This document shows, in pieces, positions 11,914-15,815 of a stretch of DNA of 64,000 nucleotides (the first letter of the stretch is position 1; each line of letters begins with the position of its first letter). The translations under genes were made by a program, and so were the position numbers. Source of the stretch: Escherichia coli (lineage in GTDB: Bacteria > Pseudomonadota > Gammaproteobacteria > Enterobacterales > Enterobacteriaceae); the NCBI RefSeq assembly GCF_003334785.1, contig NZ_QOWV01000002.1; one strand, written 5' to 3'. The notes beneath the pieces were generated by a model. That model was not told where the DNA came from. It did no database searches and saw nothing but the letters and a program-made list of their open reading frames with translations.

Positions 11914-12948
11914 ATGGAAATTCGCATAATGCTATTTATATTAATGATGATGGTTATGCCTGTGAGCTATGCGGCATGTTATAGTGAGTTATCTGTTCAG
12001 CACAACTTGGTTGTTCAGGGGGATTTTGCACTTACTCAAACACAAATGGCGACATATGAGCATAATTTTAATGATTCGTCATGCGTAAGTACAAATACTA
12101 TCACCCCTATGAGCCCGTCGGATATTATTGTTGGACTTTATAACGATACCATAAAATTAAATTTACATTTTGAATGGACCAATAAAAACAACATCACGTT
12201 GTCAAATAATCAGACCAGTTTCACCAGTGGTTATTCAGTTACGGTGACACCTGCGGCCAGTAATGCAAAAGTGAATGTTTCTGCGGGGGGCGGCGGTTCA
12301 GTGATGATTAATGGTGTTGCGACATTATCCAGTGCTTCATCATCGACACGCGGGAGTGCCGCAGTACAATTTCTACTGTGTTTATTAGGTGGCAAGTCAT
12401 GGGATGCATGTGTAAATAGCTACAGAAATGCATTGGCACAAAATGCAGGTGTCTATTCCTTTAATCTGACATTGTCATACAACCCGATAACCACAACCTG
12501 CAAACCGGACGATTTATTAATTACTTTAGACAGTATTCCCGTTTCACAATTACCAGCCACAGGTAACAAAGCAACAATAAATAGTAAACAAGGGGATATT
12601 ATTCTGCGTTGTAAAAATTTATTAGGTCAACAAAATCAAACATCACGGAAAATGCAGGTGTATTTATCAAGTTCTGACTTGTTAACCAACAGCAACACAA
12701 TACTGAAAGGTGCGGAAGATAATGGCGTAGGATTTATTCTTGAAAGTAATGGTTCGCCAGTCACACTTTTAAATATCACTAACAGCAGTAAAGGATATAC
12801 AAATTTAAAGGAAGTTGCGGCGAAGTCAAAACTTACAGATACAACGGTTTCAATTCCGATAACAGCCAGTTACTACGTCTACGATACAAACAAAGTTAAA
12901 TCTGGCGCACTGGAGGCAACCGCATTAATCAACGTGAAATACGACTAA
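11914..12948 (+). CDS. yehA: fimbrial tip adhesin-like subunit
   Basis: 344 aa with signal peptide; last gene of the chaperone-usher operon. Confidence 0.8.
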   Translation: MEIRIMLFILMMMVMPVSYAACYSELSVQHNLVVQGDFALTQTQMATYEHNFNDSSCVSTNTITPMSPSDIIVGLYNDTIKLNLHFEWTNKNNITLSNNQTSFTSGYSVTVTPAASNAKVNVSAGGGGSVMINGVATLSSASSSTRGSAAVQFLLCLLGGKSWDACVNSYRNALAQNAGVYSFNLTLSYNPITTTCKPDDLLITLDSIPVSQLPATGNKATINSKQGDIILRCKNLLGQQNQTSRKMQVYLSSSDLLTNSNTILKGAEDNGVGFILESNGSPVTLLNITNSSKGYTNLKEVAAKSKLTDTTVSIPITASYYVYDTNKVKSGALEATALINVKYD

Positions 12949-13004
12949 TAACAAGCAAGACGAGCAAGTGGCTAATAATAAAAAATAACAAGGTGTCTGC
13001 ATTT

Positions 13005-13031
13005 CCCCCTCATGATGAGGGGGCTTTTTTT
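13005..13031 (+). terminator. intrinsic terminator after yehA
   Basis: CCCCCTCATGATGAGGGGG hairpin followed by CTTTTTTT. Confidence 0.7.
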
Positions 13032-13368
13032 AGCGATGATAAAAAATCTCACCGTCGTAGGCTTTAATGATTTTACCGTCGGTGTCGCTGATCAACACGT
13101 ACGCGCCACCCATATAGGTCCAGTGCGTCCCGGCATCAGGCGCGGGCAGGTTACGCAACTGCCACTGCTTAATGTTGTACTCATCGGTACGGTACATTTC
13201 TGGTACGGTGTCCCCTGGTTTGAAATGCTTAAAGTCAGCAATGAAACTACTTAACTCATACTTAGAAATTCCCGAGGTATTGGTCGAACCCGCGGTGGCT
13301 GGTGCGGCCCAGGCGGCACTGGTAACCAGCAAAAGCGCACCCAGCAACATCTTATTTTTAATGGTCAT
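13030..13368 (-). CDS. rcnB: periplasmic nickel/cobalt homeostasis protein RcnB (112 aa)
   Basis: MTIKNKMLLGALLLVTSAAWA signal peptide; adjacent to rcnA; start trimmed to the internal ATG at 13366-13368. Confidence 0.85.
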   Translation of the reverse strand: MTIKNKMLLGALLLVTSAAWAAPATAGSTNTSGISKYELSSFIADFKHFKPGDTVPEMYRTDEYNIKQWQLRNLPAPDAGTHWTYMGGAYVLISDTDGKIIKAYDGEIFYHR

Positions 13369-13586
13369 AAACTCTCCACTTTGGGGATCTGTAATATCAG
13401 TCGCATATCTTTCCTGCCATACAATATAACTGACAAGCGATATTTTGTTAGTGATCCCATGATTTCGTAAAAAGTGTAAATGAAAGGATGCCCTAAAAGC
13501 ATCCTTAGCGAGCAGAGAGTCAGCGGAAATAGCTGATTTAAGAATCATCCTGGGCTGAAGATAACATGCAAGCCTAAAGGATTGAG

Positions 13587-14411
13587 TTATCGCATTATGC
13601 CCATGAAGCCATGTACGCCCATATACACACCGACTAAGCCAATCAACAGACTGGAAAAATAGGGGGCGCGTTTAGCGAGAGTGTTAAATCCGCTCCAGCG
13701 TTTTGCGACCTGCTGAACGCTGATTGCTGCGCCAACGCCTACGGTGACAAGCGTTAACGCCAGGCCAATGCTGAAACTGACGACCAGTGTTGCGCCCAGT
13801 GTCAGGGCTTTCAACTGAATGCATATCAACAGCACGGTAATTGCTGCCGGGCAGGGGATAAGGCCACCGGTTAAGCCAAATAACAAAATTTGCCAGTTGG
13901 TGACCTCTCTACCATCAAAGCGTCGTTTAATGTCATTGGCATGGGCTCGTGCATGGGCATCCTGATACTCGCCATGTTCGTGATGGTGATGATGTCCATG
14001 GTCGTGGTGATGTTCGTGATCGTGATGATGATGCTCATAATCATGCCCGTGCATATTCTCCAGCCAGTTGCGTTCGCCGCGCCAGGTACGCCAGAACATC
14101 CAGAACGCGGTGCTAATAATGATCACTGCGGAAATCAGCTGGAGCCACGGTTCTGCTGATTGAGCAGTAAAGAGCTTGCTGATCACCATCCCGCCAAAGG
14201 CAATTAACCAGACCACTGCGGTATGCGAAATAGTTGCTGCCAGTCCGAGCATCACCGCTTGTTTAATGGTGCCTTTGATGGCGATGATAAACGCCGCCAT
14301 CATCGTTTTTGAGTGCCCTGGTTCCAGGCCATGAAGCGCACCAAGTAAGATGGCGCTGGGGATGAAGAACCAGGCGTTTCCTTGCTGAAGAAGAGTTGTA
14401 AATTCGGTCAT
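13587..14411 (-). CDS. rcnA: nickel/cobalt efflux permease RcnA with histidine-rich loop
   Basis: 274 aa membrane protein with HGHDYEHHHHDHEHHHDHGHHHHHEHGE loop. Confidence 0.9.
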   Translation of the reverse strand: MTEFTTLLQQGNAWFFIPSAILLGALHGLEPGHSKTMMAAFIIAIKGTIKQAVMLGLAATISHTAVVWLIAFGGMVISKLFTAQSAEPWLQLISAVIIISTAFWMFWRTWRGERNWLENMHGHDYEHHHHDHEHHHDHGHHHHHEHGEYQDAHARAHANDIKRRFDGREVTNWQILLFGLTGGLIPCPAAITVLLICIQLKALTLGATLVVSFSIGLALTLVTVGVGAAISVQQVAKRWSGFNTLAKRAPYFSSLLIGLVGVYMGVHGFMGIMR

Positions 14412-14448
14412 GATAATAATTCTTAGTATTAATTCGGCAATCTGATTC

Positions 14449-14483
14449 TACTCCCCCCCAGTACCTGATACTACCCCCCAGTA
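14449..14483. promoter_or_regulatory. two RcnR operator dyads in the rcnA-rcnR divergent promoter region
   Basis: TACTCCCCCCCAGTA (14449-14463) and TACTACCCCCCAGTA (14469-14483), matching the TACT-G/C tract-AGTA RcnR operator architecture. Confidence 0.75.
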
Positions 14484-14531
14484 GATTAATAGTGCTATGA
14501 TTTTTCATATTCTTGTTAACCAGGTGTTGCC

Positions 14532-14804
14532 ATGTCTCATACAATCCGTGATAAACAGAAACTGAAAGCGCGTGCCAGTAAGATTCAGGGCCAGGTCGTG
14601 GCGCTCAAGAAAATGCTCGACGAGCCGCACGAATGCGCTGCAGTTTTACAACAGATTGCTGCTATCCGTGGCGCGGTAAACGGTCTGATGCGGGAAGTGA
14701 TTAAAGGTCATCTGACGGAACACATCGTTCACCAGGGGGATGAGCTAAAACGTGAAGAAGATCTGGATGTCGTTCTGAAGGTGCTGGATTCATATATCAA
14801 ATAA
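14532..14804 (+). CDS. rcnR: Ni/Co-responsive transcriptional repressor RcnR (CsoR/RcnR family)
   Basis: 90 aa, [61 protein letters not shown]. Confidence 0.9.
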
Positions 14805-14894
14805 TTTATTAACGCGATTGTAAAACTGCCGTTTTTCCTCGTTTACAACGCGTGCGCTGGACATTACCATCCTCCTCTGCGATTTATCATCGCA

Positions 14895-15026
14895 ACCAAA
14901 CGACTCGGGGTGCCCTTCTGCGTGAAGGCTGAGAAATACCCGTATCACCTGATCTGGATAATGCCAGCGTAGGGAAGTCACGGACCACCAGGTCATTGCT
15001 TCTTCACGTTATGGCAGGAGCAAACT
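14895..15026 (+). ncRNA. TPP riboswitch (thi-box) in the thiM leader
   Basis: Contains the conserved thi-box CTGAGAAATACCCGTATCACCTGATCTGGATAATGCCAGCGTAGGGAAG, ending at the thiM Shine-Dalgarno/ATG. Confidence 0.85.
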
Positions 15027-15815
15027 ATGCAAGTCGACCTGCTGGGTTCAGCGCAATCTGCGCACGCGTTACACCTTTTTCACCAACATTCCCCTCTTGT
15101 GCACTGCATGACCAATGATGTGGTGCAAACCTTTACCGCCAATACCTTGCTGGCGCTCGGTGCATCGCCAGCGATGGTTATCGAAACCGAAGAGGCCAGT
15201 CAGTTTGCGGCTATCGCCAGTGCCTTGTTGATTAACGTTGGCACACTGACGCAGCCACGCGCTCAGGCGATGCGTGCTGCCGTTGAGCAAGCAAAAAGCT
15301 CTCAAACACCCTGGACGCTTGATCCAGTAGCGGTGGGTGCGCTCGATTATCGCCGCCATTTTTGTCATGAACTTTTATCTTTTAAACCGGCAGCGATACG
15401 TGGTAATGCTTCGGAAATCATGGCATTAGCTGGCATTGCTAATGGCGGACGGGGAGTGGATACCACTGACGCCGCAGCTAACGCGATACCCGCTGCACAA
15501 ACACTGGCACGGGAAACTGGCGCAATCGTCGTGGTCACTGGCGAGATGGATTATGTTACCGATGGACATCGTATCATTGGTATTCACGGTGGTGATCCGT
15601 TAATGACCAAAGTGGTAGGAACTGGCTGTGCATTATCGGCGGTTGTCGCTGCCTGCTGTGCGTTACCAGGCGATACGCTGGAAAATGTCGCATCTGCCTG
15701 TCACTGGATGAAACAAGCCGGAGAACGCGCAGTCGCCAGAAGCGAGGGACCAGGCAGTTTTGTTCCACATTTCCTTGATGCGCTCTGGCAATTGACGCAG
15801 GAGGTGCAGGCATGA
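15027..15815 (+). CDS. thiM: hydroxyethylthiazole kinase
   Basis: 262 aa, [34 protein letters not shown]... Confidence 0.9.

Follow-up and report, generated by a model that had tools for sequence, protein, structure and literature searches.

The closest described system to the locus reported here is the nickel-cobalt efflux system of Escherichia coli, in which RcnR acts as repressor and RcnA as exporter. The RcnR motif of Iwig & Chivers (J Mol Biol 2009) is relayed in three citing papers (PMC3902906, PMC7055735 and PMC7105576), and the binding details given here are taken from such secondary citations. In the account of PMC3902906, the tandem pair of sites is classed as a 'type 1' operator with one RcnR tetramer reported per site; RcnR contacts the minor groove at TACT/AGTA, the G tract confers A-form character on the DNA, and the sites are described as lying 'between promoter elements'. 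The same source mentions a DNA-binding RASK motif. Both rcnA and rcnR are repressed by RcnR at the shared operator (Blaha et al. 2011, as cited in PMC7055735), RcnAB is placed under RcnR regulation (PMC7055735), and the release of RcnR from DNA is described as dependent on Ni(II)/Co(II) (PMC7055735, PMC7105576). Synthetic biology already makes use of the rcn circuit as a part that Co/Ni can induce (PMC7105576).

RcnA (YohM) of E. coli belongs to the NicO family (Rodrigue et al. 2005, as cited in PMC11247825) and has a central, predicted cytoplasmic His-rich loop, for which PMC11247825 considers export (transport), chelation or regulation as possible roles. The loop is described there as recurring in distant RcnA homologues and as being expanded in nickel-dependent cable bacteria (PMC11247825).

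We analysed a 64-kb stretch of E. coli DNA, here called the window, and compared its rcn locus with these systems and their relatives. The operator of the window is identical to that of E. coli RcnR in sequence, position, spacing and orientation, and the whole intergenic region equals that of MG1655 base for base. Type-2 CsoR operators, as in Streptomyces lividans and B. subtilis CsoR, are served by the same repressor fold family and share an A-form-like shape component in their recognition (PMC3902906). They are described with two short G/C tracts separated by 2-4 intervening bases, with repeats that lie about 11 bp apart and with two tetramers per site, whereas the sites in the window have one unbroken tract and 7 bp from TACT to AGTA, the type for which one tetramer per site is reported (PMC3902906). 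FrmR, the formaldehyde-responsive paralogue in E. coli/Salmonella, is of the same family. However, the RcnR of the window reached only 76.5 bits on the FrmR model, below the cut-off of 133, and the gene next to it encodes a NicO transporter and not frmA.

Results

Gene content of the locus

Based on profile searches the 274-aa ORF on the minus strand was identified as rcnA (yohM), with 556.8 bits on the NCBIfam nickel/cobalt efflux transporter model NF007454 (cut-off 195) and a Pfam NicO match (PF03824, 1e-69) covering residues 13-273. The 90-aa ORF on the plus strand was identified as rcnR (yohL), as it reached 197.3 bits on NF011613, the equivalog model for RcnR (cut-off 138), and matched Pfam PF02583 (Trns_repr_metal, 3.9e-21). 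All positions are collected in Table 1. The RcnR translation has the RASK motif at residues 14-17, and His3, Cys35, His60 and His64 are all there (MSH3...HEC35...GH60LTEH64); these four are said to be the metal ligands of RcnR in the work of Iwig et al. from 2008. The third gene, rcnB, was placed by the annotation of the identical MG1655 region, and an NCBIfam profile search with it gave no match.

A 1.5-kb stretch of the locus was matched in 5370 of 5426 complete E. coli genomes, with an identity over 1.5 kb of 100% to strain C5 and 99.9% to K-12. The gene names had already been proposed in an earlier reading made from the sequence alone (the sequence-only reading), and they were borne out by scores far above the curated cut-offs and by the 99.9-100% identity to annotated rcnB-rcnA/rcnR. 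The region very probably comprises the first gene and the regulatory DNA of the E. coli rcnR/rcnAB nickel-cobalt efflux system, and in the analysis no evidence was met that contradicts this reading of the locus as an rcnR/rcnAB switch.

In the MG1655 annotation the gene order is yehB-yehA, rcnB, rcnA (minus), rcnR (plus), TPP riboswitch, thiM and thiD. With Rfam the riboswitch (RF00059, 71.2 bits) was located at 14896-14992, immediately downstream of rcnR and upstream of thiM-thiD, and it was the only structured RNA found in 12900-15200.

Some variation was observed in the surroundings and the presence of the locus. Genomes of the O157:H7 type cease to resemble the window at the rcnR stop codon, and in one of these (L008) the annotated neighbour is an outer membrane protein gene and not the riboswitch. 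Two loss-of-function alleles were seen: in strain MS20675 (L009) an IS1 stands in place of the segment from the 3' part of yehB to rcnA and the 5' half of rcnR, and in strain 81EVA an IS3-family element breaks rcnA at the His-loop region. The locus was without any match in 56 of the 5426 E. coli genomes, and one plasmid-borne copy of the rcnA-rcnR region was found among 5,426.

Table 1. Positions in the window of the genes, protein segments, operator sites and candidate promoter elements of the rcn locus
Feature	Position	Strand	Basis
rcnB (yohN), periplasmic accessory protein, downstream of rcnA	13030..13368	-	annotation of identical MG1655 region
rcnA (yohM), Ni/Co efflux protein, 274 aa	13587..14411	-	ORF, NF007454, NicO, annotated E. 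coli genomes
Hydrophilic central loop, RcnA residues ~113-170	13902..14075	-	Kyte-Doolittle scan
His run HHHHDHEHHHDHGHHHHHEH, RcnA residues 127-146, imperfect 18-nt tandem repeat	13974..14033	-	translation, TRF, direct repeats
Candidate rcnA -10, TAGAAT, which overlaps the outer half-site of site 1	14445..14450	-	sequence and cross-genus alignment
rcnA-proximal RcnR operator site (site 1), TACTCCCCCCCAGTA, TACT-C7-AGTA	14449..14463	+ strand reading	exact match to published motif, conserved across genera
rcnR-proximal RcnR operator site (site 2), TACTACCCCCCAGTA, TACT-A-C6-AGTA	14469..14483	+ strand reading	exact match to published motif, conserved across genera
Candidate rcnR -10, TAGATT, overlapping the outer half-site of site 2	14482..14487	+	sequence and cross-genus alignment
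Candidate rcnR extended -10-like element, TGCTATGAT	14493..14501	+	sequence and cross-genus alignment
rcnR (yohL), Ni(II)/Co(II)-responsive CsoR/RcnR-family repressor, 90 aa	14532..14804	+	ORF, NF011613, PF02583

The His-rich loop of RcnA and its length alleles

In the Kyte-Doolittle scan of RcnA hydropathy is lowest around residue 135, with hydrophobic segments ending near residue 108 and resuming near 175, and the His run would form the core of the hydrophilic loop between them. The run consists of CAT/CAC codons with GAT/GAC/GAA interspersed, and 19 of the 23 His residues of RcnA are within residues 120-160. The sequence-only reading had described this run of His codons as repetitive at the DNA level and prone to length variation. 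It was found verbatim in the 274-aa ORF, and its repetition was evident both as an 18-nt period in Tandem Repeats Finder (13974-14030, 3.2 copies, 76% matches) and as direct-repeat families D1-D3 at the run, with those of D2 being spaced by 18 nt and up to 95% identical. Between RNWL and RRF the loop is identical to that of MG1655, and both proteins are 274 aa long. Two ORFs on the opposite (plus) strand, of 89 aa (13890-14159, Val/Met-rich) and 55 aa (13949-14116, Arg/Asp-rich), were rejected as genes and represent mirror images of the CAY/GAY codons.

The proposed comparison of tract length across strains showed that the length does vary. Among 16 readable E. coli loci, most of which had been picked from genome match lists for differing length, we found 13 distinct loop sequences between RNWL and RRF, with 43-61 residues and 13-23 His, and an annotated RcnA length from 265 aa (IAI39) to 283 aa (O157:H7). 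All length differences are multiples of 3 and all are in frame. Part of them form two series that differ simply in the copy number of 6-nt units, one with (HE)3, (HE)4, (HE)5 and (HE)7, and one with (DH)n in O157-type alleles. Records of differing length also turned up when the E. coli matches were sampled at even spacing, and with a 211-nt loop query 674 of 5364 genomes (12.6%) were below 95% identity, the sampled rows being mostly indel alleles. In a limited literature search, which is not proof of absence, we found no prior description of length variation in the RcnA loop of E. coli.

Across genera the loop is far more variable, with long (HD)n runs in Citrobacter. In Vibrio, Shewanella, several Enterobacter, Chitiniphilus, Silvimonas, Burkholderia and others a conserved loop insert of about 90 aa was seen. 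This insert (L024, L041, L054, L080, L083, L085, L102, L103, L111, L116 and L132) lies beside the same operator motif, replaces or adds to the plain His run with a sequence of the form …VDTGHG…L.I.E.…FRL…GYLES…PEPH.F…LGH..H.H.Y…, and gives an RcnA of 357-377 aa. In Enterobacter sp. Bisph1 (L027) the RcnA loop has no more than 7 His, along with a stretch rich in Pro, Ala and Gln (…SAPRLVLQPAQPARMSAQPTILSLRK…), which looks like His-repeat DNA translated in a shifted frame before the original frame resumes; two frameshifts, or else an error in the assembly, could account for this.

With a range of 43 to 61 residues within E. coli, a wider one across genera that includes the His-poor loop of Enterobacter sp. 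Bisph1 and the insert of roughly 90 aa, and a loop role that PMC11247825 gives as a choice of possibilities, the His run might be viewed as a neutral low-complexity insert, in which case the membrane core alone would work and length would drift without constraint. This is unlikely, however, as every E. coli allele is in frame and rich in His/Asp/Glu, with 13-23 His, which points to selection on loop composition, and as the His-rich loop is reported to recur in distant RcnA homologues and to be expanded in cable bacteria (PMC11247825). The in-frame length alleles may have arisen by replication slippage or unequal recombination at the imperfect short CAY/GAN codon repeats, and selection would then keep the frame and the His/acidic composition. 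Transport appears to tolerate such differences in loop length.

The RcnR operator and its C-tract variants

The two dyads lie in the 120-bp gap between the rcnA ATG (14411, minus) and the rcnR ATG (14532, plus), with a start-to-start distance of 20 bp. When both strands of the 64-kb window were searched for TACTNCCCCCCAGTA with at most one mismatch, exactly two matches were found and these were the two dyads. On the rcnA-sense strand the sites read as the reverse complements TACTGGGGGGGAGTA and TACTGGGGGGTAGTA, and both fit TACT-G6-N-AGTA, with site 1 being TACT-G6-G-AGTA and site 2 being TACT-G6-T-AGTA. They also fit the RcnR subtype of the type-1 operator exactly, with 7 bp from TACT to AGTA and tracts of 7 and 6. 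In the sequence-only reading two close dyads with C7 and C6 tracts had been placed between divergent rcnA and rcnR, within a span (13960-14483) that starts about 14 bases below the low end of the His run (13974) and stops at the end of the second dyad. Both dyads and both tract lengths were recovered as claimed, as the sole matches in 64 kb, and in the comparison with published RcnR sites that it had called for, the reverse complements agree with the TACT-G6-N-AGTA of the citing papers. Together the dyads make up the tandem type-1 operator published for RcnR.

Within E. coli the 96-nt operator region was found exactly, with C7 at site 1 and C6 at site 2 (C7/C6), in 3600 of 5347 genomes. In an evenly spaced sample 15 of 20 non-identical rows were at the reference length and thus differed by substitutions only; in the three such sequences that were read (L004, L008 and L014) the substitutions are outside the dyads. 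Every intergenic indel seen was within a C tract. Using queries of 95-97 nt with K-12-like flanks, C6/C6 was counted in 104 genomes (several O111 strains among them), C8/C6 in 95 (several O121:H19 strains among them), and, sporadically, C7/C7 in 26 and C7/C5 in 15-24. The four queries together gave about 240-250 genomes against the 3600 exact ones. Single cases of C5/C5 (L002) and of C9/C6 (L003) were also seen, the latter in the same assembly as a frameshifted rcnR. As some of the tract-variant assemblies also have a frameshifted rcnA or rcnR, part of these variants are probably homopolymer miscalls, while some appear to be real, inherited alleles, given that C6 turns up repeatedly in O111 and C8 in O121:H19 strains. 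Furthermore, a 20-bp tandem duplication (CCTGATACTACCCCCCAGTA) was found in strain N47 (L015:1444-1583), which results in three RcnR sites and not two; this three-site allele occurs in strains N47, N39 and EC26, i.e. in 3 of about 5,340 genomes. The tracts of the window itself are the canonical C7 and C6, and the variants do not change its interpretation.

The confinement of the intergenic indels to the C tracts, the four variants with their counts and the recurrence of C6 in O111 and C8 in O121:H19, which suggests inheritance, could be taken to mean that the homopolymers act as a contingency (phase-variation) switch, where slippage would alter the spacing of the half-sites and thereby toggle RcnR repression, and with it Ni/Co efflux, in lineages or subpopulations. 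The tracts are short for switching at a high rate, however. The exact reference is kept in 3600 genomes and the reference length in most of the sampled non-identical rows, exact C7/C6 is kept across genera, several variants are in frameshifted assemblies as is typical of long-read homopolymer miscalls, and alleles fixed in a lineage are ordinary polymorphism. With variants that are rare, in part fixed in lineages and in part suspect, the reading of the tracts as a contingency locus is not supported, and we regard it as highly improbable.

Conservation of the operator across species

When TACTNCCCCCCAGTA, which has 14 specified bases, was searched for in a single genome of each species, at least 120 loci were found. 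Among the matches listed, an RcnR/CsoR-family or RcnA-like ORF lay at most 400 bp from the motif in 55 of 120, with an RcnR-family ORF at 54 of these 55 listed loci and RcnA alone at one (L132). At 13 loci among the matches listed, in Citrobacter, Enterobacter, Escherichia albertii, Vibrio and Shewanella, the motif occurs as a tandem pair that has the 20-bp spacing and the orientation of the pair in the window, with the C7 (N = G) site beside rcnA and the A-C6 (N = T) site beside rcnR. When 29 rcnR-upstream intergenic regions were aligned, the two dyads stood out as a conserved island with the surrounding DNA diverged. From Enterobacterales to Vibrio and Shewanella, the operator forms such a conserved island.

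A reading of the dyads as palindromes that arose by chance, or as the binding site of another regulator, for which no support was met here (an influence of Fur or iron on rcnA, reportedly described by Koch, Nies & Grass in 2007, would add to RcnR and not replace it), is effectively refuted by the expectation from dinucleotide-preserving shuffles (a mean of 0.01 matches to TACTNCCCCCCAGTA per window, and 0 of 100 shuffles with two or more), by the RcnR-family genes that adjoin the motif in 54 of 120 independent genome matches listed, by the exact match to the published RcnR motif, and by the published footprints.

Candidate promoter elements

The outer half-sites of both dyads continue into -10-like hexamers, as AGTAGAAT toward rcnA and AGTAGATT toward rcnR. 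In the alignment of the 29 intergenic regions a -10-like continuation was present on both sides, as AGTAGAAT or AGTATAAT. The position of the candidate rcnA -10 is kept across genera as TAGAAT/TATAAT/TATGAT; on the rcnR side TAGAAT/TATAAT is conserved, and a TGnTATgAT (TGnTAT..T) element is conserved downstream of site 2. From these sequences we infer that the -10 region of each promoter overlaps or abuts an operator, with the G/C tract in the spacer, which fits the remark in PMC3902906 on sites 'between promoter elements'. The exact hexamers are to be taken as candidates. A simple consensus promoter scan did not call them, and the rcnA candidate has a poor -35. The two promoters which the scan did call abut the start codons and were judged implausible.

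Discussion

The two RcnR sites and the His-rich RcnA loop belong to a well-studied E. coli locus and are as such already known. For the working of the switch we follow the literature with regard to repressor binding, stoichiometry and metal response. Without excess metal, apo-RcnR tetramers would occupy both of the neighbouring TACT-G6-N-AGTA sites within the divergent promoter region of 120 bp, and would so repress rcnA(B) as well as their own gene rcnR. According to the literature, RcnR would read the TACT/AGTA inverted repeats via the minor groove and the unbroken G/C tract by its A-form-like shape. Binding of Ni(II) or Co(II) to RcnR, through the N-terminal amine/His3, Cys35 and His60/His64, would lower the affinity for DNA and free both promoters, after which RcnA would export Ni/Co out of the cytoplasm. 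The His-rich loop most likely binds metal on the cytoplasmic side, for substrate capture, hand-over or buffering.

This is a textbook metal-sensing circuit. The finding matters little beyond annotation, and what looks new in it is confined to variation in the population, which is described here. Two aspects of that variation may be mildly useful. Among E. coli strains the His-rich loop of RcnA is a hotspot at which length varies in frame, and the length of the operator G/C tract varies among sequenced strains. It is conceivable, though we hold it as a rather doubtful idea, that C6 at site 1 in O111, C8 at site 1 in O121:H19 and the three-site duplication in N47, N39 and EC26 retune RcnR repression and, together with the His-loop alleles (RcnA of 265-283 aa), lead to heritable differences in Ni/Co tolerance between pathotypes. 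If the tract variants are real and not assembly errors, they would provide natural mutants for the effects of G-tract length and site number on repression by RcnR.
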